From NCBI GenBank assembly GCA_964388715.1, contig CAYMBN010000008.1, positions 1 through 58,510 on the forward strand: a DNA stretch of 58,510 nt. The letters are read 5' to 3'. A program made the position numbers and the translations under genes. Source of the stretch: an uncultured Methanosarcinales archaeon. GTDB lineage: Archaea; Nanobdellota; Nanobdellia; Woesearchaeales; CAYMBN01. Under the pieces are notes generated by a model. That model made no database searches and had not been told where the DNA came from. It worked only from the letters and a program-made list of their open reading frames with translations. This document shows positions 5,828-58,510 of the stretch, piece after piece (position 1 is the stretch's first letter; every line of letters begins with the position of its first letter).

Positions 5828-7707
5828 ACCTTCCGAGCAATCAAATAATCTGCAAATTCTATAAAAAACTGTTCACCATTCTTAGACAATTTAGCTTTCT
5901 TCAAAAACTTCTTTGACTCACTAACATACTTCTCAGCAATCTTCTGCACATAACTCACTGCACCTGTTGTATGCAAAACCTCAATAGTTAAGTCAAGATC
6001 TTTTCTAGAAACTTTTCTATTCCCTAAACACTTTAAAACATGTTTTTTCTGTTTAGCATTCCCAAGCTCCAAAGCTTTTATCACCAATAAAGTCTTTTTT
6101 CCATCCTTAATATCAGACCCAAGCTCATGCCCTTTACTTAAGTGCGGACTAATATCCATAATATCATCATACAACTGAAACGCAACAGCAACCAACTCAG
6201 CAAACTTACCAAGATACTCTAACTGTTTTTTCTTAGCATTCCCAAGCACAGCACCAATCAAAACACTTTCCTTAAACAAATTCCCAGTCTTCTTTTTAAT
6301 CATCTCAAAATATTCTCTTTCTCCAACCTTTTCCTTGATCTCAAAAAAAGTATCCATTGCTTGCCCATCATTAACAATCTTGTACGCTCTCTGATACAAT
6401 GAAAGTGCTCTATCCCCAGAACCGATCAAACATTTTGTACCTAGACTTTTCAAAATATTACCACAAACAACAGCAATTGTAACAGCAAACCGTGAAGATT
6501 TATCAGAAAACAAAGGCCCTTTGTAATGTTGCTCATGATAATTTTCAATAAAATACTCTTTTACCAACCGATGTATTGTTTTCTTATTTCTACGATAATC
6601 ATCTTCATCCATGATATCATCATGCACTAATGTAGACGAATGTAATAGTTCAACACTTAATGAAACAGGAATAATATTTTTTGACCGTTTTCCAGTCACA
6701 GAATTATAAGCCATTATCAGTGCAATCGGCCTTAACCTTTTTCCACCAGCCAAAACATTATCTATAATCAATTTATATTGATATCTAAGAAATTCATTAT
6801 CCAACTTCTCCAACTCTTTACTTAAAAACCTTTTCAACTCCCTATTAATCAAAGGTTGATAATATTCAATTGCTTGCTCAAACACAGAAGAATGTTTTTT
6901 CAAAGCTCTAACAACTTCCTCAATAATCCAATCAGGTGTTGAAGCTCCTGCAACAATCCCAACATGTTTTTTCTTTTTAATCCATTCCTTTCTAAGATCA
7001 CTCACAGTTTCAATATGTTTAGTATCAACATACCGTGAACAAAGTTGAGCAAGACGTTTTGTATTTGCACTATGATACCCACCAATAATAATCATAAGAT
7101 CAACTTCCTTAGCAAGTTTCTCAGCAGAACTCTGCCGTTCCCTTGTCGCAGCACAAATAGTATTATGAGGTTCAAAAGTTTCACAATGTTGACTTAATTC
7201 ATTAACAATAACATCAAACTTTTTCTGCACCTGAGTTGTTTGTGATACAACACCCAACTTTTCAAAAACACCTAACTTCTTAACATCCTCAACAGAATCA
7301 ACAACAATAGGATTTTCCAAATTCCCAGCAATACCTTTTACCTCAACATGCTTAGGATCACCAATTATAACAACCTGATACCCACGCTTCTCAAGATTCT
7401 TTGAAATATTATGCACTTTCTTAACAAAAGGACATGTTGCATCAGTAACCTTCTTAGATAATTTAGAAATCCTTTTATAAACATTATCAGCAATACCATG
7501 TGCAGTTATAATTATATTTTCATGTACAGGAACATCATCCAACTTTCTGATTATCTTAATCCCTCTCTGCTTTAACCGTTCAAGAACCTGTTTATTATGA
7601 ATCAACTGCCCAAAAACAGCAGCCTTACACTTAAGCCCATCAACAATATTAAGAGCTCTCTTTACCCCATAACAAAATCCAGTATTCTTTGCAATTGTAA
7701 TCTTCAT
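5824..7707 (-). CDS. ispH: Fusion: HMBPP reductase (IspH/LytB) + trans-polyprenyl diphosphate synthase
   Basis: N-terminal GFCYGVKRA, DATCPFV, TICAAT (three Fe-S Cys), SANT, GASTP; C-terminal GGKRLRP, HDDIMDEDDYRR, GQAMD, FQLYDDIMD, GKKTL. Confidence 0.93.
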   Translation of the reverse strand: MKITIAKNTGFCYGVKRALNIVDGLKCKAAVFGQLIHNKQVLERLKQRGIKIIRKLDDVPVHENIIITAHGIADNVYKRISKLSKKVTDATCPFVKKVHNISKNLEKRGYQVVIIGDPKHVEVKGIAGNLENPIVVDSVEDVKKLGVFEKLGVVSQTTQVQKKFDVIVNELSQHCETFEPHNTICAATRERQSSAEKLAKEVDLMIIIGGYHSANTKRLAQLCSRYVDTKHIETVSDLRKEWIKKKKHVGIVAGASTPDWIIEEVVRALKKHSSVFEQAIEYYQPLINRELKRFLSKELEKLDNEFLRYQYKLIIDNVLAGGKRLRPIALIMAYNSVTGKRSKNIIPVSLSVELLHSSTLVHDDIMDEDDYRRNKKTIHRLVKEYFIENYHEQHYKGPLFSDKSSRFAVTIAVVCGNILKSLGTKCLIGSGDRALSLYQRAYKIVNDGQAMDTFFEIKEKVGEREYFEMIKKKTGNLFKESVLIGAVLGNAKKKQLEYLGKFAELVAVAFQLYDDIMDISPHLSKGHELGSDIKDGKKTLLVIKALELGNAKQKKHVLKCLGNRKVSRKDLDLTIEVLHTTGAVSYVQKIAEKYVSESKKFLKKAKLSKNGEQFFIEFADYLIARKV

Positions 7708-9064: not shown

Positions 9065-9540
9065 TTTATCAAACTCACAATACTAAACACCTGTATTCCT
9101 TTTCCTTGCCCAAAAACAGTTAATCCTTCGCCTGTTGTTGCTGTTATACCAATCTGATCAACCTTAATATTCAAAAGACCAGCCAAATTCTTTTTCATAT
9201 CATCAACATACGGTTCAATCTTAGGAGTTTTACATTCAATTGCAATCGAAAGATTACCTACTCTAAACCCTTTCTCTGAAAGCATTTTATTCAAAGTTTC
9301 AAAAAACCTTTTTGAATCCTGACCAACCTTATCCAGATCAGTATCAGGGTGATAATGTCCAAGACTTTTATTACCAAGTGCAGAACTAACTGCATTAAAT
9401 ATAGAATGAATAATCAAATCCCCATCACTATGAGACATAATTCCAACATGATCCTTAATAATCTTCCCTCCTAAAACTAATGGCTTACCTTCACTCTCCT
9501 CAAACATATGCGAATCATGACCAATACCTATTTTATACAT
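9058..9540 (-). CDS. ispF: 2-C-methyl-D-erythritol 2,4-cyclodiphosphate synthase
   Basis: IGIGHDSH, HSDGDLIIHS, ITATTGEGL motifs; start at ATG 9540 after a GGGGG Shine-Dalgarno-like site. Confidence 0.95.
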   Translation of the reverse strand: MYKIGIGHDSHMFEESEGKPLVLGGKIIKDHVGIMSHSDGDLIIHSIFNAVSSALGNKSLGHYHPDTDLDKVGQDSKRFFETLNKMLSEKGFRVGNLSIAIECKTPKIEPYVDDMKKNLAGLLNIKVDQIGITATTGEGLTVFGQGKGIQVFSIVSLIKC

Positions 9541-9586
9541 ATTATTTACCCCCAAATAAGTGATTTCTTTTGTCCATATATAAATT

Positions 9587-10726
9587 TTATCTCCCTAAAT
9601 CAAGCACTAGCTCTGGTTTTAATGCTTTTAAATACATTTTATGTGGACTATAACTAACCAAACGTGATGGATTCAATCTCCTTAAAGGTTCAAGAAAACA
9701 TTCCAATAACAAATTTTTTGCCTGATTAGGATGTTCATATCTTTGAGAAAGTTTATTTTGAAGATCAACAGCTAAAACTTTAACATTAAAATCACTCATA
9801 CTTATATAACTTGAAGCTTGACATTCTTCTCCAAGATAGACTAATAATTCCATACATTCTAACAAGTCAGATTCTTCTGTTATTTCCTTTGATGCCAGAT
9901 AGGAAAATCTTTCTCTTGCTAATTTTATTTGCATTTTTGAATCTTCAACAAGTTTTTTAATTATTGCATTTGATTTAGATACTTTACTCAATATTGATGA
10001 ATCACTATCTAAATCATCTCCTAATTTATTTAAGGAATACCTCTCTTTTAAAGGTAATAAGGATTCTTCACCAAATAAATGTTGTTGCATAAAAAGTGTA
10101 AATGATTCATTTAAAACCTTAAGATAAAAAATTTGTGAAGAACTAAATTTACTTGGATTTGTTATAAAAATATCTGAATAAGTATTAGATTCATTTTTTT
10201 TAATTAAAAGATTAAATAACACATGTATTCCTTCATGATAAATACCTTCTTCAATTTTAAAAGGAGATTCTCTATCAAGAATAATCCAATGTTTATCATT
10301 AAAATAAAAATATTCTGTACAAGCTTCAAGTTCACAAAATTCTACTTGTTCTGGTTTTAGCATACTAAAGTCAGAATCTTTAAATCCTAATAAATTGTAA
10401 GCCATTCTAATAAAATTTGTTAAAATTTGAAAATAATCAGTAAATCTTATTGAGTTTCTAGGTAATAAATTTTTATAATATTTAAACATCCAATTTTCAC
10501 CATATATATCATGAAAAAAAGTATAGACCTCTCTAAATAATTTATCTTCTTTAGCTAATTTATAAAAAAGTGCTCTAGTTTCATCTGGAACAAAATAAGT
10601 TTTCATAAAATTTTCTAATGCCTTAGGATAATCCATTAAATCTTCACTAATAAATCTATCTTCTCGACGCTTATTTTCTTCAATAATTTCAATAATCCGT
10701 TCAACACTAAGAACTTCATCACTCAT
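9587..10726 (-). CDS. Hypothetical protein with HExxH (possible zinc metallopeptidase)
   Basis: 379-aa ORF overlapping the ispD stop; YHEGIH plus downstream VLNESFT. Confidence 0.6.
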   Translation of the reverse strand: MSDEVLSVERIIEIIEENKRREDRFISEDLMDYPKALENFMKTYFVPDETRALFYKLAKEDKLFREVYTFFHDIYGENWMFKYYKNLLPRNSIRFTDYFQILTNFIRMAYNLLGFKDSDFSMLKPEQVEFCELEACTEYFYFNDKHWIILDRESPFKIEEGIYHEGIHVLFNLLIKKNESNTYSDIFITNPSKFSSSQIFYLKVLNESFTLFMQQHLFGEESLLPLKERYSLNKLGDDLDSDSSILSKVSKSNAIIKKLVEDSKMQIKLARERFSYLASKEITEESDLLECMELLVYLGEECQASSYISMSDFNVKVLAVDLQNKLSQRYEHPNQAKNLLLECFLEPLRRLNPSRLVSYSPHKMYLKALKPELVLDLGR

Positions 10727-11387
10727 CTTTCTGCCTAAACAACTCTCTCACAATCGCCAAATCACTCTTCACAGTAACCTTCATGTTAATATAATCACCT
10801 GGTACAACCTTGACTTTGTGACCATTCATTGCAACAATCTCACTATCATCAGTTGCAACAAAATACTTATCATTAATAGCCTTCTCAAAACAACTCAAAA
10901 GAATCTCTCGTTTAAACCCTTGCGGTGTCTGTGCAATCCAAGTTGTTTTCCTTGCCAAAGATCTTTGTATCATCATATCATCCTCAGCATATTTTATAGT
11001 TGCAACAGGTGGCACAGCAGTCATTGCAGCACCATTCTCTTCAACAGCTTTAATCAAATCCTGGATCAACCAAACAGGAGTCAGTGGCCTAGCACCATCA
11101 TGTGTAATAACAACATCACCACTACAACTCTTAACTCCATTCAAAACAGACTCAATCCTGTTACCACCACCTTCAACAACCTTAACCTTCAACCCATTCT
11201 CAGAAAACAATTTTTCATAAAACTCAATATCCTTCCTCTGCGTTGCAACAACAATCTCATCAACATTTGCTTTAGAAAACTGTTCCAACGTCCTTACAAT
11301 AAGCATCTTCCCACCAATATCAGAAAGTAACTTATTCTCACCAAACCTTGTTGAACAACCAGCTGCAGTTATAACCACTGATATCAT
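10719..11387 (-). CDS. ispD: 2-C-methyl-D-erythritol 4-phosphate cytidylyltransferase
   Basis: AAGCSTRFG-NK, GGNRIESV, HDGARP, AQTPQGF, TDDSE, NMKVT motifs. Confidence 0.94.
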   Translation of the reverse strand: MISVVITAAGCSTRFGENKLLSDIGGKMLIVRTLEQFSKANVDEIVVATQRKDIEFYEKLFSENGLKVKVVEGGGNRIESVLNGVKSCSGDVVITHDGARPLTPVWLIQDLIKAVEENGAAMTAVPPVATIKYAEDDMMIQRSLARKTTWIAQTPQGFKREILLSCFEKAINDKYFVATDDSEIVAMNGHKVKVVPGDYINMKVTVKSDLAIVRELFRQKDE

Positions 11388-12505
11388 AACAATCCCTCCG
11401 CTGTTTTCCTAGCCTTTTTCTCAGCTTCAATTATATCATTCACATTAGGATTTTCAATATTTTCACTCATCTCAATTGTTTTCCCAATTATCTTTCCAAT
11501 ATCCATAAAACCAATCTTACCTTCAATAAAAGCCCTAACAGCAACATGATCAGCACCATGCACAACAGCAGGCATCACTCCACCATGTTCTAAAGCAATA
11601 TGCCCTAAACTTAAACATGGAAACTTATCAAAAGGTGGTTTCTCAAACCTTAAAGTCCTATCATACAAACTTACAAAATCAGAAACAGTAGCTTTAACCC
11701 TTTCAGGATAAAACAATGCATACTGTGTGTAACGTTTCATATCAGGTGTACCTAATTCAGTAATAATACTCCCATCCTGAAACTCAACAAGTGAATGACA
11801 AATATAATCAGGATGCACAACAACCTTTATCTGTTCAGACTTAACACCAAACAAATGTTTTGCTTCAATAACCTCAAACACTTTATTCATACATGTTGCA
11901 CTATCAACACTAATCTTAGTCCCCATATTCCAAGCAGGCCTATCAAGAATATCTTTCATTGTAACCTTCTTCAACTCATCACTACTCATCTCAGCAATCT
12001 TACCTTTTCCCATTGTCAAATACAAATTTCTAATCTCATGTTTTTTACCAGACTTTAATGATTGAAACAATGCAGAATGTTCAGAATCAATTGGAATAAT
12101 ATCAACACCTTTTTCCCGAGCCTTTTGCATAACAATCTCTCCAGCTAAAACTAATGTTTCTTTATTTGCTAAACCAACTGTAATCCCCTTATCAATCGCA
12201 TCTAAAGTCGGCAACAATCCAGACGCTCCAACAACAGAATTAATCAACAAATCACCACTAACAACTTTTCGCAAACCATCAACACCTTTATACACAGTAA
12301 CATCACAATCTAAACTACCAGCTTTTTCTTCATCAACAACACAAACAGCTTCTGGCTTAAACTCATCAATCTGTTGTTTTAACTTTTCAATATTAGTATT
12401 AGCTGATAACCCTACAACCTTAAACTTATCAGGATGCGCTCTAATAATATCTAATGTCTGCGTTCCAATTGATCCTGTTGACCCTAAAATACAAACTTTC
12501 CTCAA
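11384..12505 (-). CDS. dxr: 1-deoxy-D-xylulose 5-phosphate reductoisomerase
   Basis: ILGSTGSIGTQTL, LANKE, PIDSEHSALFQ, WNMGTKISVDSAT, PDM motifs. Confidence 0.96.
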   Translation of the reverse strand: MRKVCILGSTGSIGTQTLDIIRAHPDKFKVVGLSANTNIEKLKQQIDEFKPEAVCVVDEEKAGSLDCDVTVYKGVDGLRKVVSGDLLINSVVGASGLLPTLDAIDKGITVGLANKETLVLAGEIVMQKAREKGVDIIPIDSEHSALFQSLKSGKKHEIRNLYLTMGKGKIAEMSSDELKKVTMKDILDRPAWNMGTKISVDSATCMNKVFEVIEAKHLFGVKSEQIKVVVHPDYICHSLVEFQDGSIITELGTPDMKRYTQYALFYPERVKATVSDFVSLYDRTLRFEKPPFDKFPCLSLGHIALEHGGVMPAVVHGADHVAVRAFIEGKIGFMDIGKIIGKTIEMSENIENPNVNDIIEAEKKARKTAEGLL

Positions 12506-13551
12506 AATCTTCGAACCTCCTTAATCAAATCATCAACAATCTTATACTTTCTAGCTCTTGCAATTGTTTTCTCAACCTTTTTAATGATTCTACCTTTCTT
12601 ATACATTAAAATAAACTTATCACTTCCAACCAAAGCCAGGTCAGCTTTCTTTGCTTCACCAGGACCATTCACAATACAACCCATCACAGCAATCTTCAAC
12701 GGTTTCCTAATATTCAATGACTCAAGTTTTTTAGAAATTCCAACAACATCAATCCCATGCCTTGCACAAGTTGGACACGAAATAATCATTACACCATTCT
12801 TTCTTAACCCTAATGACTTAAGAATTTCATACCCAGCCTTAACTTCATCAACAGGATCAGAACTTAACGAAACACGAACAGTATTCCCAATCCCTTTACT
12901 CAAAAGAATCCCAAACGCAGCAGCAGTCTTTATATTCCCTGTAAAACAACCACCAGCTTCAGTCACACCAAGATGAACAGGATAATTAAACTTTTTTACA
13001 AACAACTCATTTGCTTTCACAGTATTTTTCACATCACTTGCTTTCAAAGAAACAATTATATCATAAAATCCATGCTTTTCCAAAATCTTAATATGTCTTT
13101 CTGCACTCTTAACCATTGCTTTAGGAGTCAAACCATACTTACGAACAAAACTCTTTTCCAAAGATCCAAGATTAATCCCTATTCTAATTGGTATACCACA
13201 ATCTTTAGCAGCTTTAACAACAGCTTTAATCTTATCTTCATTCCCAATATTCCCAGGATTAATCCGCAACTTATCAACATAAGGAGCAGCCATCACAGCC
13301 AATTTATAATCAAAATGAATATCAGCAACAAGCGGAATCTTAATATTCTTCTTAATAACCTTCAAAGCTTCTGCACTCTTTACATCAGGCACACTAACTC
13401 TAACAATCTCACAACCAACCCTCTCAAGCTCATGAATCTGCCTAATAGTAGCTTTAATATCAGAAGTCTTAGTATTACACATACTCTGAACACTAATAGG
13501 ATTATTCCCACCTATCTTTACAGACCCTACACTAACTACTTTGGTTTTCAT
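12502..13551 (-). CDS. ispG: HMBPP synthase (IspG/GcpE)
   Basis: VQSM, PLVADIHFD, RINPGNIG, HLGVTEAG, SCPTCAR, AVMGCIVNGPGEA. Confidence 0.96.
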   Translation of the reverse strand: MKTKVVSVGSVKIGGNNPISVQSMCNTKTSDIKATIRQIHELERVGCEIVRVSVPDVKSAEALKVIKKNIKIPLVADIHFDYKLAVMAAPYVDKLRINPGNIGNEDKIKAVVKAAKDCGIPIRIGINLGSLEKSFVRKYGLTPKAMVKSAERHIKILEKHGFYDIIVSLKASDVKNTVKANELFVKKFNYPVHLGVTEAGGCFTGNIKTAAAFGILLSKGIGNTVRVSLSSDPVDEVKAGYEILKSLGLRKNGVMIISCPTCARHGIDVVGISKKLESLNIRKPLKIAVMGCIVNGPGEAKKADLALVGSDKFILMYKKGRIIKKVEKTIARARKYKIVDDLIKEVRRF

Positions 13552-13610
13552 ATTCCCCCCTTTAAAAATAGAAAGTGGAAGGGTTTTTATAAATTTTATT
13601 GTAAAAAGTG

Positions 13611-13788
13611 GTGTGTATAGTGCCTTTGCCCTATTTTTGTAAAAAACAAATATTCGTATCGTAAGACAATAATGTCGAAAACCTTAACCTAAAAAGCAGA
13701 TTTTCGTGTTTTGTCAAAAACCAAAGGTTTTTGAGCATGCTCAGAAATCTTTGATTTCTGACATTTACAGGCATGGCACTATACACAC
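13611..13788. mobile_element. MITE-like element, copy 1 (14-bp terminal inverted repeats, nested 52-bp palindrome)
   Basis: GTGTGTATAGTGCC...GGCACTATACACAC; body aligns with 40426-40546. Confidence 0.7.
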
Positions 13789-13914
13789 ACTAAAAAGCAC
13801 AATATTTATAAACCAAACCTAATTTTCAACACATATCAAGAGATAAGCTGGTGTAAAACTCGCTTATACTGGAGATGAATGTTCTATCATTTTTCTCCAA
13901 GGAGGATAAATAAA

Positions 13915-27375: not shown

Positions 27376-27546
27376 CCTAAACCCTCATTTTTTATTTGTC
27401 AACAATATTGTTAATCAATATGGCGGGTAATATTGTTAACAATATTGTTTAGTAATAGTGGTAACTATATAAAGATTTATGACCATTTAATAATGAAAAC
27501 ACAAAAAATGATAGATTTATATATTAAATAGTATTTATTTATACCA

Positions 27547-35203: not shown

Positions 35204-37090
35204 CTACTTCTTCCCTTCAACCTCTTTCAAACACTGTTCAATAAACTTCTCTACCTTAGACTCACCAAGAACTTTATTACTTCTATCTCTGACATTAACT
35301 GTATTATTCTTTTTCTCATTCTCTCCAACAACTAATATATAGTTCACTTTTTCTTTAACAATAGCTTCTCTTACTTTCTTACTCACTGATTCATGCCTGT
35401 AATCAATCTCAGCTCTTAGTCCAGCTTGCTTAAACTCCTTTAACACTTTCTCAGCATAAGGAATCATGTCATCGTTAATAGTTACCAACTTAATCTGTAA
35501 CGGACTTAACCACATTGGAAATTTCCCAGCATAATGTTCAACAAGTATTCCTAAGAACCGTTCAACACTACCATATATTGCCCGATGTACCATAACAGGC
35601 CTATGTCGTTTACCATCTTTACCATCATACTCAAGGTCAAACTTCTCAGGCATTGAAAAATCAACCTGTATTGTACCACACTGCCAGGTTCTTCCAATTG
35701 CATCTTTAAGATGATAATCAATCTTTGGTCCGTAAAATGCACCATCACCAGGATTAATCTTATAATTCATCTTAGCTTTTTTCAAAACATTTTCAAGCGC
35801 TTTCTCAGCCTTCTGCCAAACTTTAATTGAACCCATTGCCTTTTCAGGCCTAGTTGAAAGCTCAACATGATACTCAAACCCAAATGTTTTGTAAATAAAA
35901 TCTATAAACTTAATCAATCCCATTATTTCATCTTCAAGCTGTTCTTCAGTACAAAAAATATGTGCATCATCTTGAGTAAAAAATCTAACTCTAAACAATC
36001 CAGACAACACTCCACTTAACTCATGTCTATGCACAACACCAAATTCACCAGCACGAATAGGCAGTTCTCTGTAAGAATGCACAGCTGTCTTGTAAATCAA
36101 AAGATTACCAGGACAATTCATAGGTTTCACAGCATAATCTTTATTATCTATTTTAGTAAAATACATATTATCTTTGTAATGATCCCAATGTCCACTTTGC
36201 AACCATAACTTTTTATTCAAAATCAAAGGTGTCTTATTCAAAGTATAATCTCGTTTTAACATCTCACTTCTCATAAACCCAACTAATTGATCAAAAATAA
36301 AACAACCTTTACCATGAAAAAAAGGAAATCCAGGTCCTTCTTCATGAAAACTAAAAAGATCCATCTCTTTTCCTATTTTTCTATGATCACGCTTAGCAGC
36401 CTCCATCATTTTCCCTAAATACTGCTTTAACTCTTCTTTAGTTGGAAAACTAATTCCATAAATACGTTGCAACATCTTATTCTTAGCATCAGCTCTCCAA
36501 TATGCACCAGCTACTTTAGTTACTTTTATTCCTTTAATATATCCAGTACTTGGCACATGCGGTCCTCTACAAAGGTCAACAAAATCACCATTTTGATAAA
36601 CAGAAACCTTATCATCAACAAGTTCATTAATCATCTCAGTCTTGTAAGGATTATTTTTAAATATCTTAAGTGCTTCTTTCTTAGAAATTTCTTCACGTTC
36701 AAACTTTAAATCTTTCTTCACAATCTCTCTTATCTTTTCATTAATTTTCTTAATATCATCTTCTCCAACAGGATCCATATCAAAATCATAATAAAATCCT
36801 TCTTCAACAGCAGGACCTATTGTTGGCAATGCTTTTGGATACAAACTTATCAATGCTTGCGCTAAAACATGCGCAGAAGAATGCCTAAATATCTCAAGAC
36901 CTTCATCATCATCAAAATGAATTAGTTTGAAAGTACAATCTTCATTAATAGGTGTGTTAAGATCAAACACTTTACCATTAATCTTTACAGCAAGTGCACC
37001 TTTCCCTTTTATTTCTTTAGCAATCTCACTAGCCAAAACACCTTCCTTAAACTTCCTCTCAACCCCATCATGAAATTGAATTTTTATCAT
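35204..37090 (-). CDS. thrS: Threonine--tRNA ligase (bacterial type with TGS and editing domains)
   Basis: HSSAH, DLCRGPH, RDHRKIG, KPMNCP, GAFYGPKID, WQCGTIQ, HRAIYGSVERF. Confidence 0.97.
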   Translation of the reverse strand: MIKIQFHDGVERKFKEGVLASEIAKEIKGKGALAVKINGKVFDLNTPINEDCTFKLIHFDDDEGLEIFRHSSAHVLAQALISLYPKALPTIGPAVEEGFYYDFDMDPVGEDDIKKINEKIREIVKKDLKFEREEISKKEALKIFKNNPYKTEMINELVDDKVSVYQNGDFVDLCRGPHVPSTGYIKGIKVTKVAGAYWRADAKNKMLQRIYGISFPTKEELKQYLGKMMEAAKRDHRKIGKEMDLFSFHEEGPGFPFFHGKGCFIFDQLVGFMRSEMLKRDYTLNKTPLILNKKLWLQSGHWDHYKDNMYFTKIDNKDYAVKPMNCPGNLLIYKTAVHSYRELPIRAGEFGVVHRHELSGVLSGLFRVRFFTQDDAHIFCTEEQLEDEIMGLIKFIDFIYKTFGFEYHVELSTRPEKAMGSIKVWQKAEKALENVLKKAKMNYKINPGDGAFYGPKIDYHLKDAIGRTWQCGTIQVDFSMPEKFDLEYDGKDGKRHRPVMVHRAIYGSVERFLGILVEHYAGKFPMWLSPLQIKLVTINDDMIPYAEKVLKEFKQAGLRAEIDYRHESVSKKVREAIVKEKVNYILVVGENEKKNNTVNVRDRSNKVLGESKVEKFIEQCLKEVEGKK

Positions 37091-37171
37091 TTTTTCACCC
37101 TTCGTATTATTTTTTATTGTTTTTATTTATAATAGTTTTGTTTAAAAACAAGATTTAGGCCACTGAACAGC

Positions 37172-37270
37172 TTATGCTGTTGTGGTTGTTGTTGTAGTTG
37201 TATTTGTAGTAGTTATACTTACAACTAAAGAAAACAATACAGAATTTAAGTTAATGTTTTTGTTCATCAT
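37172..37270 (-). CDS. Thr-rich leader peptide upstream of thrS (putative attenuator uORF)
   Basis: Manual translation MMNKNINLNSVLFSLVVSITTTNTTTTTTTTA*: 11 Thr in the last 13 codons, same strand as thrS, 81 nt upstream of it. Confidence 0.75.
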   Translation of the reverse strand: MMNKNINLNSVLFSLVVSITTTNTTTTTTTTA

Positions 37271-37342
37271 AACACAAAAACACAGGCTAATATATAAATT
37301 TTACTGATAAAATATTTAAACAACCTCTTCTTCTTCAAAACC

Positions 37343-37767
37343 ATGAAAGTAGGAACACTCTGTTATGTAAAAAAAGATGGTAAAACCTTAATGCTCCACA
37401 GAACAAAGAAACAAAACGACATGCATGAAGGTAAATGGAACGGTCTGGGTGGCAAAGTAGATCCAGGTGAAACACCAGAAGAATGCGTTATCAGAGAAAT
37501 AAGAGAAGAAGCAGGTTTAACAATAAAAAACCCAGAACTAAAAGGACTTCTAACATTTCCAAATGATGTTGGTTACCCTCCTGAAGACTGGTATGTGTTT
37601 GTATTTGTAGCAAAAGAATTTGAAGGTGAACTAATAACATCAAACGAAGGCCATCTTAAATGGATCAGTGACCAAGAACTACCTAACCTTAATGTATGGG
37701 AAGGTGACAGAATATTTTTCAAGTGGCTTAATAAAAAAGGCTTTTTCTCAGGAAAATTTTGTTATAA
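37343..37767 (+). CDS. Nudix hydrolase (8-oxo-dGTPase-like), 3' end lost in assembly gap
   Basis: Nudix box GGKVDPGETPEECVIREIREEAGL; WNGLGG; WEGD. Confidence 0.9.
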
Positions 37768-37867
37768 NNNNNNNNNNNNNNNNNNNNNNNNNNNNNNNNN
37801 NNNNNNNNNNNNNNNNNNNNNNNNNNNNNNNNNNNNNNNNNNNNNNNNNNNNNNNNNNNNNNNNNNN
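37768..37867. other. Assembly/scaffold gap (100 N)
   Basis: Run of N. Confidence 1.
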
Positions 37868-38196
37868 TTTCTGCTTATCTTAAGCTTGTTAGCAACTTCC
37901 CTATGCCTAGCAGTAATCTTTTTAACTCTCTCACCATTAGTATCAACATCATCTTCCAGGAACCAATAATGTTTTAAGAATTCGTGCCATGCTTCTAACT
38001 GTTTTTCAATATCTTTTTTATATTGTTTACCTTTTCTTAATTTTTTATAATGTGCTAACTTTTCAAGTGTCTCTTTTGCATCAATATTAATATGTTTTAA
38101 AAAATCTTCAATCACAGAAATATTTTCATCAATATTAATTTTTTTACCTTTACCCTTAGAATGTTTCTTAAAAATTTTCCATTCATTGATTGCCAT
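37868..38196 (-). CDS. Hypothetical protein, 3' end lost in gap
   Basis: MAINEWKIFKK... with GAGGGA SD; runs into the N gap. Confidence 0.6.
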
Positions 38197-40934: not shown

Positions 40935-41026
40935 ATAAACGTTAAGTTTTAGGAAACAAAGTTTCCTAAATCGTTTCGACTTTGTCGAAAACTTTATAAA
41001 TTAAAATAAAAATCTTATTCTATAAT

Positions 41027-41151
41027 GGGCCTGTGGTCTAGTGGCTATGACAGTGCCCTTACATTCAGTCTGTTTTACTGATAAGTGAGGCATTGATCGC
41101 CGGTTCGAGTTGAGGCATGAAACTTGTTTCACGAAAGTCCGGCCGGGCCCA
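41027..41151 (+). tRNA. tRNA-Val(TAC) with two BHB introns (37/38: 41064-41087; 59/60: 41110-41137)
   Basis: Acceptor GGGCCTG/CGGGCCC-A, anticodon stem GTGCC/GGCAT, T stem GCCGG/CCGGC; both introns fold as BHB. Confidence 0.92.
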
Positions 41152-41191
41152 TCATCACAATGAGTTTTTTTATTTAACTCATCATATTCAT

Positions 41192-41290
41192 GCGGTGATA
41201 GTCTAATGGCTAGGATCGTACCCTGCCACGGTATGGATGCGGGTTCGAGTTGAAGCGAAAATTCGTTTCACGAAAGTCCCGCTCGCCGCA
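41192..41290 (+). tRNA. tRNA-Gly(GCC) with T-loop BHB intron (59/60: 41250-41276)
   Basis: Acceptor GCGGTGA/TCGCCGC-A, anticodon loop CT-GCC-AC, T stem GCGGG/CCCGC. Confidence 0.92.
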
Positions 41291-41292
41291 TT

Positions 41293-41415
41293 GGGCCTGT
41301 AGCTTAGTCTGGAGCTTTCCAGTAAAGCAGACAATTGGAGCGCTGCTCTTATATGACAGTGTTTCATACAATCTAAGTAAAGCAGTGGTCGTGAGTTCAA
41401 ATCTCATCAGGCCCA
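41293..41415 (+). tRNA. tRNA-Ile(TAT) with two BHB introns (D-loop: 41313-41334; 37/38: 41354-41379)
   Basis: Acceptor GGGCCTG/CAGGCCC-A, anticodon stem CTGCT/AGCAG, loop CT-TAT-A^A, T arm GTGAG-TTCAAAT-CTCAT. Confidence 0.88.
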
Positions 41416-41650
41416 CTTTTTTCTTTTATTGTAGTAGTTCGTTAGACTTTTGCGTAGCAAAATGTCTAACTTAAGTGGATTTTTGTTCAAACTTTTTTTT
41501 GAGCAAAGCTCAACAAAAAAGCTTGGTGGTAATCTCATCAGGCCCACTTTTTTCTTTTTTAATGAATTCGAACAAAGTGAGAATTCCAAATCTAGGAGGT
41601 CTCGGAACCTAAGGTTCTGAGGTGGTAATCAACTCAGACCCACTTTTTTT
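41400..41650 (+). repeat. Direct repeats of the tRNA-Ile 3' end separated by short palindromes
   Basis: AATCTCATCAGGCCCACTTTTTTCTTTT at 41400 and 41531; degenerate third copy near 41621-41650. Confidence 0.75.
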
Positions 41651-51441: not shown

Positions 51442-54400
51442 ATGAACTTAAAAAGGCAACTTTTGGCATTGTACACCATACTTTTAATAGTTTTAATGCC
51501 AGTAAATATTTCTGCTACTGATAATGCACCTGATGTAACAATAACTTCTAGTGCAACAACAACTTACGTTAACAAAGATTTTACTTTAACAATTAAAGGA
51601 ACAGACGATGTTGGTCTAGACCTGATTGCATATAAAGAAGAAAATGAAGAAGACTGGCACAGATTTAATTGTGATAATTCAACTAAATGTGAGGAAAATG
51701 TAACATTAAGTATGGATCAAGTTGGTCTTTACCGTTTTGTTGGCGCTGCTAAAGATGTTATAAATCAAAAAGCAAGTGACAGTGTTTTCATTTCAGTCTT
51801 ACAAAACAACCCACCTCAAATATCTTCACCTAATCCAGAACAAATAGTTGATATTGATGAAGGTTCTTCACAAGGTTTTAGTGCAACTATCACAAACTCT
51901 GAAGATGATTATGGAGAAATACTTGATTATGAATGGAAACTAGATAACCAAATTGTTAGTGATGGAGAAATCTCAAGCGGAATTCTATTTTATCTTTACA
52001 CTCAAGATGATTATGATGAAGCAACAAGAACACATGAACCAACCCATACATTATCATTAACAGCTACAGATGAAGCAGATCAAATAGCATCTTATCAATG
52101 GAACATAACAATCAAAAATGTCAACAGAAAACCAACTTTAGATTATGTTGAATTACCAAATACAGATAAGTACACAGATGATGAAATAACATGTACTGTT
52201 TATGGTGCAGAAGATCTTGACAATGATCCAATTACTTATCGTTATTCCTGGAAAAGTAACGGTGGAATCTATCCAATAAGACATGAAGAAAAAACATCAA
52301 ACACAGATACTCTTGACTGTGGAATAACACAACACTGTGATAAAGATGACTTAATCAGTTGTGAAGTAGAATTAGTTGATACTCAAACAGTAAGTGAAAC
52401 AAAGATTGACAGTTTAACAATCCTAAACACTGCTCCTGAATTTACAAGCGTCGCTTTAACACCAGAACAACCTCAAAAAGAAGATATGTTAATATGTACT
52501 GCAGATGGTTTCTCAGATGCAGATAATGATGCAGAACAATTTAGATTTACATGGAAAAGTGATGATGATCAAATTAAACAAATTACAAAAACAAGTAATG
52601 TTGACTCAATAAGTTGTGAAACAGAATCTTTATGTGAAAAAAATAAAATAATTACTTGTGATGTTGAAGCTTATGATGGAGAAGATTATAGTAATATAAT
52701 TAGTAATAATAAGGAAATTCAAAACACAATACCTTCTTTCAACACAACTCACATTACTCAAGAAGTTTACACAGATACTTTAATTGAATGTACTGCTACA
52801 GGTTGGACAGATCCAGATGCAAATGATTTTGCAAAATATGATTGGATATGGTTTATTAACGGAAACATAACACAAACAGAACAAGACTCAACATCCTCAA
52901 CATTAAATTGTGACACAGTTACTGGCTGTGAAAAAGATAAACAAGTAACATGTGAAGCAACACCAAAAGATGATGATTCAGCAGGAATTCCAAAATCAAG
53001 TAATATCACAGTACAAAACACAATCCCAACAATTGACTCAGTTTCAATAACAGATCCAGCAGATAAAACAACAGAAATAATTGCAACTCCAATTGGCTGG
53101 AATGACCCAGATGAAAATGATGATCCAATCTATCAATATAAATGGTCAAGAAATGATGCTGGACTAGGATTTGGTCCTAACTCTGCAACTTATTCTGGTG
53201 ATAAAATAAGAGGAGATATAATTAAAGTAAGAGTCACTCCTTATGATGATACTGTTGGTTATAACACTCATTCAAAAAAACATGTAGAAGTAACAATCAC
53301 AAACGCAAATCCAGTTATCTCAGATGTAACAATCACACCAGAAAACGCTTACACAAATTCAACATTAACAGGTTCTGGAACTTTCTTTGATCCAGACACA
53401 GTTGACTTTGACGATGCAGAACAAGGTTCAACTTACAAATGGTTTGTAAACAACGAACTTGTTGGAACAAACAAAAACCTAACACCAGACTTATTCAACA
53501 AACACGATAATATTACTTTTGAATACACACCAATGGACAACCTAAGTTTAGCAGGAGACCCTGTAAACTCAACCCCAATCACAATCTCAAACACACCACC
53601 TGTATTCACAGATATCTCAGTTACCCAAAATGTTTACACAAATGATATCATAACATGTACACCTTCAGGTTTCAGTGACATTGACAATGATGCAGAGAAT
53701 TATACTTATGAATGGAGAATTGATGAAGAAATTGTTGAAGGACAAACTTCAAACACTTTTGACTGTTCAGTTGAAGGATGCGACAGAGACAAACCAATAG
53801 ATTGTTATGCAACTGCTGTTGATGATAATAATGCATTAGGAAATACTCTTGTTGCAAGTACTACAATACTTAACACTGCTCCAGAAGTAACAAATGTTCA
53901 CATTGAACCAGCACAACCATACACAACAGACAAACTAGAATGTGTTTACGATTTTAGCGATGCAGACAATAATGTAGAAGATGGTTCAACTTACAGATGG
54001 TTTAAGAACCAAGCTTTAACAGGATTAACAACTAAAGAAATTTCAAGTTCAAATTCAATCAAACATGAAACATGGTCATGCGAAACTACTCCTAATGATG
54101 GAACTAATGAAGGAATCCCAATTAATTCAACAAATACAACAATAAAAAACACACCACCAGAAATAACCAACATTGCAATCACTCCAGAAATTGCTTATAC
54201 AAATACTACATTAATAACAGAACTTGGTTATTTTGATGCTGATAATGACGTTGAAGGTGGCTCTATACTTGAATGGTTTGTAAATGATATTCTTGTTGGA
54301 GGCGCTAACACACCAGTACTTTCTTATGAAAATTTTAGTAAGGGAGATATTGTAAAATTTGTTTATAATGTTCATGATGAAGAAGAATTTGGAGTTTCAG

Positions 54401-57400
54401 AATCAGCTAATATAACTATAAGTAACTACCACCCAACATGGGACTCCCTACCAAGAAATCGTGCAATAATTGAAGACAATCCTTTAACATACAATATTGA
54501 TGCAAGTGATATTGATACAGTTGACACAGTTAATTATTTTGTTAATGATCCTGAATTTTCAATTGACAGCCAAGGCGTATTAACTTACACTCCTCAAGCA
54601 AACTGGACAGGTAAAAAAACAATAACCTTAACTGCTTCAGACAGTTTTGAAAACATAACTACTTCAATTGATGTAACAGTTCTTCCTGATAATGATCCAC
54701 TTTTTATCATAACTCCATTCCAAAATTTTGAAATGGACGAAGATACAGAATCAGATGAAATTTACCTAACAGACATCTTTGGTGATATTGATACTGTAAA
54801 TGATTTCCTAATTGATGTAATTAATGAAAGTGAAGAAAAACTTTACGAAATAAAAGGAAAAGATTACTTAGTAGAAGCTTTAAACATTGACCTTAACACT
54901 GTCAACTTAAAAATTGATTATCAAACATATGAATTTGGAATTGGTGACTCAAATCAATTGCCAGATGAAATGAAAGTAGCTGTAAAAGATATTCTAGTTG
55001 GCACTCCAAATAAAGCAGAATTAATGTTCTACACTGACAGTCAACAGATGATGTATTCAGTAGATGGAGAAAATAACATTAATGTATACATCGGTGATGA
55101 TGATGTTACTTTTGTTCCAAAACCAAACTGGTTTGGCAATGAAACAATTACTTTTGAAGCAAACGACGGCCAATATCAAATAAGTGATGACATTACTGTA
55201 ACTGTAAAAAGTATGAATGACCTTCCTACAATCAACTTAACAGGACCAACACCAAATCAATGGTACAAAGAAGTCATTCCTGTTAGCGCAGATGCTAATG
55301 ACATTGATCCTGATTATGGTATCGCAAATGTATTATTTGAATACTCTCTTGACTCAGACACAAATGGAGAAAATGGAAACTGGAATTTAATATCAAATAT
55401 AACAACTGAACCTTATGAAACAGTAACAGATAGCACATTATATTTAGACAACTCTTTAAACAATAATGTATGGATAAAAGCAACTGTTCATGATAGTTAT
55501 GGAGCATCTGTCTCAGACAAATTAAAAATAATGGTTGATAATGAAGCACCTACAACAACTGATTCAGGTACAGATACAGATTGGCATAATGAGAATGTTA
55601 TAATTACTCTTTCATGCGAAGATGGGATTGGTTCTGGATGCAACCAAACATTTTATTGTATTGGAAGTGATACTTGCATTCCTGACCAGATTTATGATAA
55701 TGGGATAACAGTTTCAGAGGAAGCTATTAGATATGTAAGATTCTTTTCAAATGATACTCTTGGTAATCAAGAAACAGTTCAATTTACTGATAACACTGTT
55801 AAGATTGATAAAACTGAGCCTTTTGTTGATGCTGGTCCAAATATTAAAACTAATGAAGAAAAGTTACTTAATGGGGTTGTTGAAGGCGGATTAAGCGGAG
55901 AAAATACTTTTTCATGGACAAAAACAAATGGTCCAGGACAAGTATCATTTAATATTCCTGATCAAGAAGATACTCTTGTTTCAGCTGATATTAATGGGGT
56001 TTATACAATAAGATTAACAGCAACAGATGGTGCTGGTAACATTGCATTTGATGAAATGTTATTTACTTGGGACACAGCTAGCCCAAATGTTAATGTTGGT
56101 GTTGATAGAATTACTAATGTTTCTATTTTTCTAAATGCAACAGTTGAAGATACTTTAAGTAACATAACTAATTATGCTTGGGTAGAAGCATCAGAAGATG
56201 CACCAGGTAATTTAACTTTTAACCCACGTGATACAGAAAACACAACAGTTTCAGCTGATGCTGATGGGGTTTATATAGTAAGATTAAAAGTTAGTGATGA
56301 AGCTGGAAATACTGGGGCTGATGATCTTTCATTTACATGGGACACTACACCTCCTAATATATTTGGATCAAACATAGAAAATACAATAGAATATGGTCAA
56401 GATGTTGAAGTAAGAGTTAATACAACAGATTTAACAGAAATAAGCTCTGTTTTTGCAGATGTTAATCAAACATTACATGAAATGACTGTTGAGTCAGGTA
56501 GTACTTACTTAACAACTATTTCAGATCTAGAAGTAGGAACATATAATGTCCAATATATAGCAAACGACTCTTTCAATCAAGTTAATAACACTATTACAGA
56601 CTTGTTTGAAGTGATAGACACAATAGATCCTGTTTTTACAGTAGAACTTTCAAATGAAACTAAAGAGTTTGCAACAGATTCAGTTAGTCAAGATTTAGAA
56701 GCAACAGATCTAAGTGGCATCGCAAGTTATGAAGTCAATGATAATACAAACTTTGAAATAGATAGTAATGGTCTACTAACAAACAAAACCAGTCTAGCTG
56801 TAGGTACATACAATTTAATTGTAACAGCAACAGACAATCATGCTAGAACATCAACTACAATCTGTACAATCACAGTTCAAGACACAATAGACCCAGAGTT
56901 CACAACAATACCTTCTAATGAAGAAGTTGTTTATGGCCAAGAATGGTCAGGTGTACAGTTTGAAGCAGACGATCTAAGCGGTATTGATACTTATTATATA
57001 GATGATACTAATAGATTTAATATAGATGGAACAGGATTGTTAACTTGGAACAACGCACTAGATGTTGGTGAATATTATATAGAAGTTTTTGTAAATGATA
57101 CTCAAGGAAATGATAATTCAGTAATTTATAATTTAAATATTACCAAGAAAGGTTTAACAATCACTGCAAATAGTGATACAAAAGTTTATGATTCAGTAGC
57201 ATATAGTGGAGGTAATGGTGTAACTTATGACGGATTTGTAGGAAGCGAAGACCAAACAGTCCTTAGTGGAACACTATCTTACACAGGTACAAGCCAAAGT
57301 GCAACAGAAGTAGGCACTTATGTAATCACACCTCAAGGTTTAACCTCAGACAATTATAATATTGCTTTTGTTGGTGCTCAGTTAAGTATCACTCAAAGAC

Positions 57401-58510
57401 CAATTACAGTCACAGCAGATGCAAGCCAAAGCAAAGTTTATGGAGAAGATGACACAACATTCACATACACAATCACTTCAGGCAACCTAGTAGGTTCAGA
57501 TAGTTTCTCAGGTTCACTAGGCAGAGATGCTGGTGAAGATGTAAATACTTACGCAATCACACAAGGAACCCTAACAGCAGGTTCAAATTATGATTTAAAT
57601 TTTGTCTCAGACAACTTTGCAATCACTCAAAGACCAATTACAGTCACTGCAGACGCAAGCCAAAGCAAAGTTTATGGAGAATCAGACTCAGAATTCACAT
57701 ACACAATCACATCAGGCTATTTAGTAGGAAGTGATAGTTTCTCAGGCACACTTAGTAGAGATGCTGGTGAAGATGTAGGAACTTATGAAATTACTCAGAA
57801 TACTCTAACTGCTGGTAGCAATTATGATCTAAGTTTTGTTTCTGACAATTTTGAGATCACAAAATCACAATTAACTATAACAGCAAATGATGATACTAAA
57901 GTTTATGACGCAATTGGTTATAGTAATGGAAATGATGTAACATATGATGGTTTTGTAAGTGGAGATAATGAAAATGATCTTACAGGAGCATTATCATACA
58001 CAGGTACAAGTCAAGGTGCAACAGAAGTAGGCACTTATGTAATCACACCTCAAGGTTTAACCTCAGACAATTATCAAATTAGTTTTGAAGATGGAACACT
58101 TAATATCACAGCTAGAGACTTAACACTAACAAACTTCGTAGCAAACAACAAAGTATATGATGGCACAATTGGTATCACAGGTGATAATTTTGATGATGAT
58201 AGAATTCAAGATGATGAATTAACCTTTTCATATGACATATCATTCGAAGATAAGAACGTAGGCACAGACAAAGATGTTGACTTCACAAACATTGCAATTA
58301 ATGGTGGAGCTGATCAGAATAATTATAATCTTGTAACAACTTCAGGAACTGCAGTTGCAAACATCACAGCAAAAGATCTAACCTTAACAAACTTTGTAGC
58401 AAACAACAAAGTCTATGACACTACAACTGATGTAACAGGTAATGATTTTGATGACGATCGTTTAGGAAGCGACGAATTAACATTCTCATACAACGTAGCA
58501 TTTGAAGATA
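51442..58510 (+). CDS. Giant secreted adhesin/surface protein (>2350 aa, runs off window end): Ig/cadherin-like repeats, then MBG and YDG repeats
   Basis: Manual translation MNLKRQLLALYTILLIVLMPVNISATDNAP...; repeated NT.P...D.D.D...Y.W...C...P.D modules; TITANSDTKVYD / TVTADASQSKVYG (MBG-like); ANNKVYDG...FEDKNVGTDK (YDG-like). Not in the ORF track because no stop is in the window. Confidence 0.88.
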   Translation, partial: MNLKRQLLALYTILLIVLMPVNISATDNAPDVTITSSATTTYVNKDFTLTIKGTDDVGLDLIAYKEENEEDWHRFNCDNSTKCEENVTLSMDQVGLYRFVGAAKDVINQKASDSVFISVLQNNPPQISSPNPEQIVDIDEGSSQGFSATITNSEDDYGEILDYEWKLDNQIVSDGEISSGILFYLYTQDDYDEATRTHEPTHTLSLTATDEADQIASYQWNITIKNVNRKPTLDYVELPNTDKYTDDEITCTVYGAEDLDNDPITYRYSWKSNGGIYPIRHEEKTSNTDTLDCGITQHCDKDDLISCEVELVDTQTVSETKIDSLTILNTAPEFTSVALTPEQPQKEDMLICTADGFSDADNDAEQFRFTWKSDDDQIKQITKTSNVDSISCETESLCEKNKIITCDVEAYDGEDYSNIISNNKEIQNTIPSFNTTHITQEVYTDTLIECTATGWTDPDANDFAKYDWIWFINGNITQTEQDSTSSTLNCDTVTGCEKDKQVTCEATPKDDDSAGIPKSSNITVQNTIPTIDSVSITDPADKTTEIIATPIGWNDPDENDDPIYQYKWSRNDAGLGFGPNSATYSGDKIRGDIIKVRVTPYDDTVGYNTHSKKHVEVTITNANPVISDVTITPENAYTNSTLTGSGTFFDPDTVDFDDAEQGSTYKWFVNNELVGTNKNLTPDLFNKHDNITFEYTPMDNLSLAGDPVNSTPITISNTPPVFTDISVTQNVYTNDIITCTPSGFSDIDNDAENYTYEWRIDEEIVEGQTSNTFDCSVEGCDRDKPIDCYATAVDDNNALGNTLVASTTILNTAPEVTNVHIEPAQPYTTDKLECVYDFSDADNNVEDGSTYRWFKNQALTGLTTKEISSSNSIKHETWSCETTPNDGTNEGIPINSTNTTIKNTPPEITNIAITPEIAYTNTTLITELGYFDADNDVEGGSILEWFVNDILVGGANTPVLSYENFSKGDIVKFVYNVHDEEEFGVSESANITISNYHPTWDSLPRNRAIIEDNPLTYNIDASDIDTVDTVNYFVNDPEFSIDSQGVLTYTPQANWTGKKTITLTASDSFENITTSIDVTVLPDNDPLFIITPFQNFEMDEDTESDEIYLTDIFGDIDTVNDFLIDVINESEEKLYEIKGKDYLVEALNIDLNTVNLKIDYQTYEFGIGDSNQLPDEMKVAVKDILVGTPNKAELMFYTDSQQMMYSVDGENNINVYIGDDDVTFVPKPNWFGNETITFEANDGQYQISDDITVTVKSMNDLPTINLTGPTPNQWYKEVIPVSADANDIDPDYGIANVLFEYSLDSDTNGENGNWNLISNITTEPYETVTDSTLYLDNSLNNNVWIKATVHDSYGASVSDKLKIMVDNEAPTTTDSGTDTDWHNENVIITLSCEDGIGSGCNQTFYCIGSDTCIPDQIYDNGITVSEEAIRYVRFFSNDTLGNQETVQFTDNTVKIDKTEPFVDAGPNIKTNEEKLLNGVVEGGLSGENTFSWTKTNGPGQVSFNIPDQEDTLVSADINGVYTIRLTATDGAGNIAFDEMLFTWDTASPNVNVGVDRITNVSIFLNATVEDTLSNITNYAWVEASEDAPGNLTFNPRDTENTTVSADADGVYIVRLKVSDEAGNTGADDLSFTWDTTPPNIFGSNIENTIEYGQDVEVRVNTTDLTEISSVFADVNQTLHEMTVESGSTYLTTISDLEVGTYNVQYIANDSFNQVNNTITDLFEVIDTIDPVFTVELSNETKEFATDSVSQDLEATDLSGIASYEVNDNTNFEIDSNGLLTNKTSLAVGTYNLIVTATDNHARTSTTICTITVQDTIDPEFTTIPSNEEVVYGQEWSGVQFEADDLSGIDTYYIDDTNRFNIDGTGLLTWNNALDVGEYYIEVFVNDTQGNDNSVIYNLNITKKGLTITANSDTKVYDSVAYSGGNGVTYDGFVGSEDQTVLSGTLSYTGTSQSATEVGTYVITPQGLTSDNYNIAFVGAQLSITQRPITVTADASQSKVYGEDDTTFTYTITSGNLVGSDSFSGSLGRDAGEDVNTYAITQGTLTAGSNYDLNFVSDNFAITQRPITVTADASQSKVYGESDSEFTYTITSGYLVGSDSFSGTLSRDAGEDVGTYEITQNTLTAGSNYDLSFVSDNFEITKSQLTITANDDTKVYDAIGYSNGNDVTYDGFVSGDNENDLTGALSYTGTSQGATEVGTYVITPQGLTSDNYQISFEDGTLNITARDLTLTNFVANNKVYDGTIGITGDNFDDDRIQDDELTFSYDISFEDKNVGTDKDVDFTNIAINGGADQNNYNLVTTSGTAVANITAKDLTLTNFVANNKVYDTTTDVTGNDFDDDRLGSDELTFSYNVAFED

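Follow-up and report, generated by a model that had tools for sequence, protein, structure and literature searches.

Our analysis of a 58,510-nt stretch of contig CAYMBN010000008.1 (referred to here as the window) identified, in the 5' region of the threonyl-tRNA synthetase (ThrRS) gene thrS, a candidate lineage-specific, leaderless upstream open reading frame (uORF) with a run of threonine codons, which would sense charged tRNA-Thr and act through continuation of the transcript into thrS. We place the probability of this complete reading at roughly 0.45. The broader proposition of a Thr-tRNA sensor, whether its output is transcript continuation or a post-transcriptional step, is on balance probable. 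The sensing half is the well-supported part of the proposal, and we do not commit ourselves to the output step or to the sign of the response. The evidence probably carries a Thr-run ORF in the thrS 5' region that is predicted to be transcribed and translated, together with one strong hairpin whose formation is predicted to depend on whether a ribosome occupies the last four Thr codons or the stop; it does not carry a terminator/antiterminator switch of the bacterial kind.

The uORF occupies 37172..37270 on the minus strand and comprises 32 codons followed by TAA. It begins with ATGATG without a Shine-Dalgarno (SD) sequence, its frame is closed upstream by an in-frame TAA at 37303..37301, and its stop lies 81 nt from thrS on the same strand. 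The hydrophobic N-terminal half of the predicted peptide precedes a Thr tract (37178..37213, minus strand), in which 11 of the 12 codons numbered 20-31 specify Thr (ACA seven times, ACT three times, ACC once) and the remaining one is AAT. In order, the tract reads ACT twice, ACA, AAT, ACA, ACT, ACA three times, ACC and ACA twice, and is followed by GCA and TAA. A preliminary description of this DNA had reported a Thr-rich uORF at these positions, and its ATG start, its peptide and the count of 11 Thr among the last 13 codons were all borne out. The mixture of Thr codons follows their usage in the coding sequences of the window (ACA 558, ACT 313, ACC 54, ACG 13), and five of the six departures from ACA within the tract fall on the third codon position (binomial p = 0.018).

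This tract stands alone in its surroundings, and thrS is the sole aminoacyl-tRNA synthetase (aaRS) gene of the window. A six-frame scan of the 58.5 kb returned no other 13-codon stretch with at least seven ACN codons, the only single-residue tracts at 11 of 13 were the Thr tract and its antisense Val reading, and no Thr-rich stretch was found in any other window protein. Tracts of at least nine ACN codons in 13 were likewise absent from 1,406,388 bases of 80 related loci. When the 252-nt intergenic region upstream of thrS was shuffled by mononucleotide 20,000 times, 8 of 13 was never reached and the maximum, 7, occurred once. A rough estimate of 0.0065 was obtained for the chance occurrence of an ATG within the start window, in the Thr frame and followed by 19 open codons.

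Expression of the uORF is suggested by a consensus promoter, P1, whose B recognition element (BRE)/TATA sequence AAAATTTATATA lies at 37291..37302 on the minus strand. Its TATA box TTTATATA (37298..37291) is situated 20 nt ahead of the uORF ATG, in agreement with the earlier statement that a TATA box about 20-25 nt upstream would make the uORF nearly leaderless. The pattern AAWNTTTATAWA matches the window 11 times against 2.3 expected, mostly in front of genes or of the tRNA cluster at 41027. A position weight matrix (PWM) was built from nine of these 11 matches, P1 being held out and the match at 7474..7485, inside a gene, being left out as well; in this matrix P1 ranked 12th of 116,720 positions. 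By eye, TATA-to-ATG spacings of 20-23 nt recur at several window genes, and at the tRNA gene at 41027 the TATA box lies 26 nt from the 5' end of the mature tRNA. Since the spacing at P1 is that of this genome's leaderless genes, the uORF looks leaderless, with a predicted transcription start at or next to its ATG. Judged by promoter geometry alone, it is predicted to begin at the mRNA 5' end.

The end of the uORF coincides with a strong RNA hairpin, here called hairpin B (37160..37185, minus strand), with 10 bp, a 2-nt bulge, an AUAA loop and a predicted energy of -12.0 kcal/mol. Its 5' arm is at 37185..37176, its loop at 37175..37172 and its 3' arm, which holds the bulge, at 37171..37160; it reaches from the third-last Thr codon through the Ala codon to the stop, which sits inside the loop at 37174..37172. 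A hairpin over the last Thr codons and the stop had been proposed before, and it was recovered in every fold as an unusually stable structure: only 10 of 38,902 sampled 30-nt windows, representing six distinct loci with hairpin B among them, were equally stable. A weaker structure, hairpin A (37195..37227, minus strand), pairs GUUGUA from the Val codons with UACAAC from the early Thr tract in several registers of the minimum free energy (MFE) structures and reflects low-complexity complementarity. The 188-nt leader as a whole has an MFE of -32.8 kcal/mol, compared to -20.8 +/- 3.3 for shuffled sequences (z = -3.7). Beyond hairpin B follow a U-rich stretch, TCTTGTTTTT (37144..37153, minus strand), with a single T5 run at 37148..37144, and the SD sequence of thrS, GGGTGA (37095..37100, minus strand), which is separated by AAAA (4 nt) from the ATG at 37090; both were found where the preliminary description had put them. 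GGTGA is seen again ahead of other genes of the window.

The position of a translating ribosome was modelled by forcing its footprint to be single-stranded in folds of the leader, in eight states. Hairpin B had a pair probability of 1.00 in the free leader and of 0.99-1.00 with the P site at Thr20 to Thr26, and of 0.00 with the P site at Thr28, at Thr30 or at the Ala codon, where the stop is in the A site. As the stop lies within the loop, an unstalled ribosome also melts the hairpin.

On this basis, the following sequence of events can be proposed. Transcription from P1 would start at or beside the uORF AUG, this 5'-terminal AUG would be translated, and the ribosome would decode 11 Thr codons right before the stop. 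Its position would then gate hairpin B, which in constrained folding is melted with the P site from Thr28 to the stop and forms if the ribosome is absent or has stalled earlier. By geometry, when the polymerase reaches the T5 run (RNA 3' end at ~37144), about 15 nt of RNA would lie inside the enzyme and hairpin B would just have emerged; at that moment the A site of a tightly coupled ribosome would contain the stop, and the hairpin would be masked. The state of hairpin B at the time when RNA polymerase passes over the weak U-tract, 11-16 nt further on, would alter the share of P1 transcripts that enter thrS, and read-through from P1 would add to basal thrS expression from a probable proximal promoter, P2. 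The response would have the homeostatic sign if stalls on the second half of the Thr run dominate, or if hairpin B protects the RNA.

A number of observations weigh against this reading. A stall on the first Thr codons leaves hairpin B intact, so that, if the hairpin promotes termination, starvation would lower thrS expression, a logic like that of pyrBI, and the geometry of an early stall would give a sign opposite to that of classical attenuation. Neither arm of hairpin B has an antiterminator partner in the free or the footprint-constrained folds. The mean unpaired probability of the thrS SD was 0.31 in all eight ribosome states, and the duplex between the leader and the thrS start (-8.9 kcal/mol) was no match for a shuffle mean of -10.4 kcal/mol, 76 % of 500 shuffles being at least as good. 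The lone T5 run begins 11 nt past the stem of hairpin B and is not adjacent to it; no enrichment was seen for hairpin-plus-T sites (counts of 7, 7 and 13, in total 27, where 6.0, 7.9 and 7.0, in total about 21, are expected); and runs of T5 or longer are not avoided in the sense strand of coding sequences (114 against 88 expected). P2, described below, may drive thrS independently. A Thr-rich uORF or a long leader was found in none of five related archaeal loci, and 75 scanned loci had at most five ACN codons in ten upstream of thrS, compared to nine in ten here. Finally, the tract registers in Tandem Repeats Finder as a degenerate array of period 3 (8 copies, 80 % matches) or period 6, so replication slippage may have seeded it.

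The U-rich stretch merits attention as the proposed site of the output. No intrinsic terminator was returned for the minus strand by the terminator scan. A run of at least five T within 60 nt of the stop was present in 10 of 44 genes, and clear gene ends have at least two such runs, from which it follows that a single T5 would allow read-through. Archaeal termination is reported to depend on U-tracts and aCPSF1, and in Methanococcus a single U4-tract terminates less than two, with aCPSF1 binding the U-tract (PMC8716108, accessible text). TCTTGTTTTT is thus at best a weak, leaky archaeal termination signal. A terminator of bacterial type was rejected on the spacing of the T5 run from the stem together with the lack of hairpin-plus-T enrichment genome-wide, and the T5 run was rejected as a strong signal on its frequency within genes. 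Sequestration of the thrS SD by the leader was also rejected, given the constant accessibility of the SD and a duplex no better than shuffles. The layout of thrL and pheM, to which the region had been likened, is therefore not supported: no antiterminator is predicted, the only T5 is 11 nt off the stem, no minus-strand terminator is predicted and hairpin-plus-T sites are unenriched. Control of thrS by ribosome stalling, the wider claim, loses this layout and retains P1, the stable hairpin and a Thr run cognate to the window's one aaRS gene.

The comparison with relatives was based on five archaeal loci (54-59 % ThrRS identity) and 75 bacterial loci, mostly from Firmicutes (50-56 %); the upstream scan took in 75 of these 80, leaving out L020, L032, L033, L043 and L073, which were without upstream DNA. 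The preliminary description had regarded the absence of a poly-Thr uORF from relatives as damaging, and such an absence was found in the five archaeal loci, all of them distant. As the archaeal relatives scanned have no more than 59 % ThrRS identity, and the best match anywhere 66 %, this is a weak test of conservation. It had also been suggested that other aaRS genes might have uORFs rich in their cognate codons. The window holds thrS only, and in the five archaeal loci the only residue tracts of at least 9 in 12 were of Leu, in non-coding frames. None of the eight ThrRS homologues with an N-terminal extension had a Thr-rich one. A search of the five archaeal loci for known cis-regulatory RNA gave signal recognition particle (SRP) RNA only; its gene lies within 1 kb upstream of thrS in L001 (8962-9234) and in L002 (4522-4793). 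L001, the closest archaeal relative, also has, within 9938-9996, an 11-codon uORF whose ATGA end overlaps the thrS start, with a 2-codon ORF ahead of it; this uORF is unrelated to the one described here. Among the bacterial loci, 11 were scanned for T-boxes, and one (L018) of the seven with at least 300 nt upstream had a T-box directly upstream of thrS, which makes for a weaker contrast than had been expected. Sensing systems ahead of the same aaRS gene are reported to be often exchanged (PMC2965389, accessible text).

The alternative that survives best, which we consider unlikely, is that the region comprises two units: P1, the ORF, hairpin B and the T5 run would form a small gene of their own, encoding a protein or an RNA of ~125 nt, thrS would be transcribed from P2, and the Thr content would be coincidental. 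The unit indeed has all the parts of a leaderless gene (a promoter, an ORF and, at the 3' end, a hairpin with a T run behind it), the hydrophobic N-terminal half of the peptide speaks for it, and a comparable hairpin with a 9-nt spacer and a T5 run follows the tRNA cluster at 41441..41485. P2 itself is a TATA-like sequence, TTATAAATA (37124..37132, minus strand), between the uORF and thrS. It lies ~33 nt before the thrS ATG, a spacing that resembles that of the SD-led genes of the window, and its pattern has 7 matches against 3.0 expected. Its PWM rank of 92 of 116,720 is like that of the presumed NUDIX promoter (99), and at PWM ranks 61-100 a gene start was found 10-60 nt downstream of 5 of the 40 sites, compared to a background of 2.2 %. 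That thrS might have its own promoter downstream of the uORF had been named in the preliminary description as a threat to its proposal, and P2, with its SD-type spacing, is a candidate for such a promoter. Three features bear on co-transcription of the uORF with thrS: P1 is strong, a single T5 run stands before thrS, and the TATA-like P2 is located between the two. Against two units stands a severe coincidence, in that the gene for charging tRNA-Thr has as its neighbour the window's only Thr tract, a type of tract missing from 1.41 Mb of related loci. The other window proteins, moreover, hold no Thr-rich stretch, and phmmer found no homologue of the peptide in 1.84 billion representatives, a search with little power for a low-complexity query of 32 aa.

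A second alternative, which seems to us quite unlikely, retains the same sensor and gives it a post-transcriptional output, in which a stalled ribosome would, for instance, protect P1 transcripts against 5'-to-3' decay at their 5' end or shift ribosome traffic toward the thrS start, and termination at the U-tract would have no role. Stabilization of mRNA by a stalled ribosome has a precedent of the ermC type. Such an output would suit the weakness of the termination elements (a lone T5 run 11 nt off the stem, T5 runs not avoided, hairpin-plus-T sites unenriched), and stabilization by a stalled ribosome would be homeostatic whichever Thr codon causes the stall. No structural link is predicted from the Thr tract to the ribosome-binding site of thrS, however, the 81 nt between the uORF stop and the thrS AUG are long for reinitiation, and the strong hairpin B would be left without a role.

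Little credence is given to a third alternative, neutral low-complexity DNA, in which an (ACA)n slippage array in decay shares its frame with an ATG by accident and has no function. The period-3 and period-6 scores of Tandem Repeats Finder, the AT-rich genome and the lack of the tract in every relative scanned would fit this view. Against it, the window contains just two period-3 arrays in 58.5 kb, the Thr tract being one of them, and where the tract departs from the repeat it does so synonymously in five of six cases. The in-frame start-window ATG with its open frame has a chance of about 0.0065, and the tract has a top-12 promoter and a top-6 hairpin as neighbours. Least probable is a CA-rich binding site in place of a coding sensor, whose ligand might be a DNA-binding activator of P2 (through ACAAC repeats) or an Sm-like protein (through an (AAC)n site in the RNA). 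Four ACAAC copies upstream of P2 (37201..37178) and the idea that Hfq-type proteins bind A-R-N triplet repeats can be cited in its favour. The repeats lack regular helical phasing, however, no binding protein was identified, and a binding site would account neither for a leaderless ATG and an open frame nor for the synonymous pattern and the overlap with the stop codon.

Other identities for the element were examined and rejected. Descent from a secreted protein that had a Thr-rich linker is contradicted by the lack of a further Thr-rich stretch in any window frame and by the TAA at 37303..37301. The leader begins with AUGAUGA, as a C/D-box small RNA might; no CUGA box is present in 37270..37160, and snoRNA matches elsewhere were only below threshold. 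Inspection gave no support for hairpin B as a bulge-helix-bulge motif or a K-turn. No Rfam family was matched in the thrS intergenic region up to an E-value of 10, and the T-box was not among six weak matches at E-values up to 10 in 36800..37500, nor was it found anywhere in the window at the gathering score. The ThrRS operator of Escherichia coli mimics the tRNA-Thr anticodon arm, with a 7-nt loop that carries a Thr anticodon and adjoins the SD. No operator-like 7-nt anticodon loop was predicted near the thrS SD here; hairpin B, whose loop is the 4-nt AUAA, is 60 nt away from the SD.

The classical leader-peptide transcription attenuators of bacteria are thrL, pheM, trpL and hisL. The thrS region shares with bacterial attenuators a short ORF with a codon run cognate to the downstream gene, a stable hairpin between the two and a U-rich stretch thereafter. 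It differs from them in its archaeal host, its predicted leaderless mRNA and a possible second promoter downstream, and furthermore in having no mutually exclusive antiterminator, a single U-run 11 nt off the stem and a stop codon in the hairpin loop. Leader peptides of bacterial aaRS genes are described for pheST, for Streptomyces trpS and leuS and for Bacillus hisS (PMC1262725 and PMC2965389, accessible text). In mycobacteria, leaderless polycysteine short ORFs (sORFs) are reported to act as attenuators in a 'Cys ribulon' (10.1101/834739, accessible text). As portrayed there, these have in common with our element a leaderless short first cistron, a run of cognate codons and ribosome pausing as the proposed signal. 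The stalled ribosome of the mycobacterial system blocks a duplex that sequesters the ribosome-binding site, whereas the thrS leader has no such predicted duplex, and the regulated gene is a biosynthetic operon in that source compared to an aaRS gene here. The element appears to resemble both aaRS leader peptides and poly-Cys sORFs most closely and to fail one defining feature of each, the terminator/antiterminator pair of the former and the RBS-sequestering duplex of the latter.

T-box leaders of Firmicutes aaRS genes share the task of sensing tRNA-Thr charging ahead of a closely related bacterial-type thrS, as in L018; the sensor proposed here is the ribosome and not a tRNA-binding RNA. In pyrBI the signal is UTP-dependent pausing and in tnaC it is Trp-induced arrest, and the factors involved are Rho or bacterial intrinsic terminators. 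Systems of these types share with the thrS region a leader ORF that reaches or adjoins the termination signal, where the ribosome would mask it directly and no alternative hairpin is needed. The signals and termination factors differ, the archaeal counterpart being aCPSF1/FttA. In the accessible text of PMC11616081, the sensing of transcription-translation coupling by aCPSF1/FttA is put forward as a hypothesis only.

The archaeal identity of the host was confirmed by genes of the window: Hel308 domain 4, XPD, a GAN-type DHH-CID nuclease, SRP54 and an S15 protein with an S13_N domain. A further archaeal sign is an intron-bearing tRNA that was picked up by Rfam and missed by ARAGORN. The thrS gene (35204..37090, minus strand) encodes a 628-aa ThrRS of bacterial type, with TGS, SAD, class II core and anticodon-binding domains in Pfam. 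Its named homologues are threonine--tRNA ligases of Woesearchaeota, Nanoarchaeota or Nanobdellota, and the closest of 7,996 scored proteins has 66 % identity. The protein is of full bacterial type, with 50-56 % identity to Firmicutes and 54-59 % to the five archaeal proteins, and this similarity to both suggests an old transfer between the groups. Upstream of thrS, a NUDIX gene begins at 37343 on the opposite strand, which makes the 252-nt intergenic region a divergent promoter region. A run of N at ~37761-37869, marking a scaffold gap, cuts the NUDIX ORF and an ORF of the other strand, ~460 nt from the uORF promoter.

The tRNA cluster already mentioned consists of three genes (41027-41415, plus strand) behind a consensus promoter at 40989-41000. 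The third is the sole Rfam match and has UAU in its anticodon loop and insertions of 29 and 27 nt; ARAGORN found none of the three. On visual inspection, the first gene resembles Val(UAC) and the second Gly(GCC); the two have a similar T-arm insert of ~27 nt, and the first also appears to have an intron in its anticodon loop. Downstream of the cluster are two copies resembling tRNA 3' ends (41533-41552 and 41622-41650, plus strand), each followed by a T-run; the copy at 41533-41552 duplicates the final bases of the tRNA (41393-41415). The copies might represent tRNA fragments or what is left of attachment sites.

Elsewhere in the window, a bacterial-type methylerythritol phosphate/deoxyxylulose phosphate (MEP/DOXP) isoprenoid operon was found in this archaeon at 5824-13551 (minus strand), comprising IspG, Dxr, IspD, one unassigned ORF, IspF, an HD-domain protein, a GHMP kinase (IspE-like) and an IspH-polyprenyl synthetase fusion. 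The MEP pathway is mentioned in a paper on bacterial pathways in DPANN (PMC8204110). A perfect palindrome with 13-bp arms (13723-13752) ranks with the most stable local hairpins of the window. It is placed between two divergent promoters, that of the MEP operon (13586-13597, minus strand) and that of S15 (13801-13812, plus strand), and could be an operator. At 27396-27477, 2.7 copies of a 25-nt tandem repeat with the palindrome TTGTTAACAA abut a promoter-like site (27466-27477, minus strand), which is top-scoring and has no gene start called within 300 nt. An ORF of more than 2,356 aa (51442-58509, plus strand) runs off the end of the window, contains a 234-nt tandem duplication (57388-57860) as well as MBG, YDG, PKD-like and Ig-like domains, and probably encodes a giant surface protein.

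In bacteria, leader-peptide attenuation is the textbook proof of functional transcription-translation coupling. No amino-acid-sensing leader peptide in archaea was found in the literature searched, a search that most subscription journals lay outside, and the Haloferax and Methanosarcina Ribo-seq papers, in their accessible text, merely list uORFs. It is possible, although we regard it as rather doubtful, that the thrS region offers the first archaeal example on record of ribosome-mediated control by an amino-acid-sensing leader peptide, which would have arisen de novo in one DPANN lineage before a bacterial-type thrS. Such control would be assembled from archaeal parts, namely a leaderless start, a ribosome-masked hairpin and U-tract/aCPSF1-type termination, and not from a bacterial terminator/antiterminator switch. 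If the arrangement is coincidence only, it has no consequence. If the proposal is true, archaea use ribosome stalling as a metabolic sensor, and the region would offer a natural test case for modulation of archaeal termination by the ribosome, a matter that the accessible text of the FttA structure paper (PMC11616081) leaves open. It would also mean that such sensors arise quickly and convergently, here in a reduced, symbiont-type genome.

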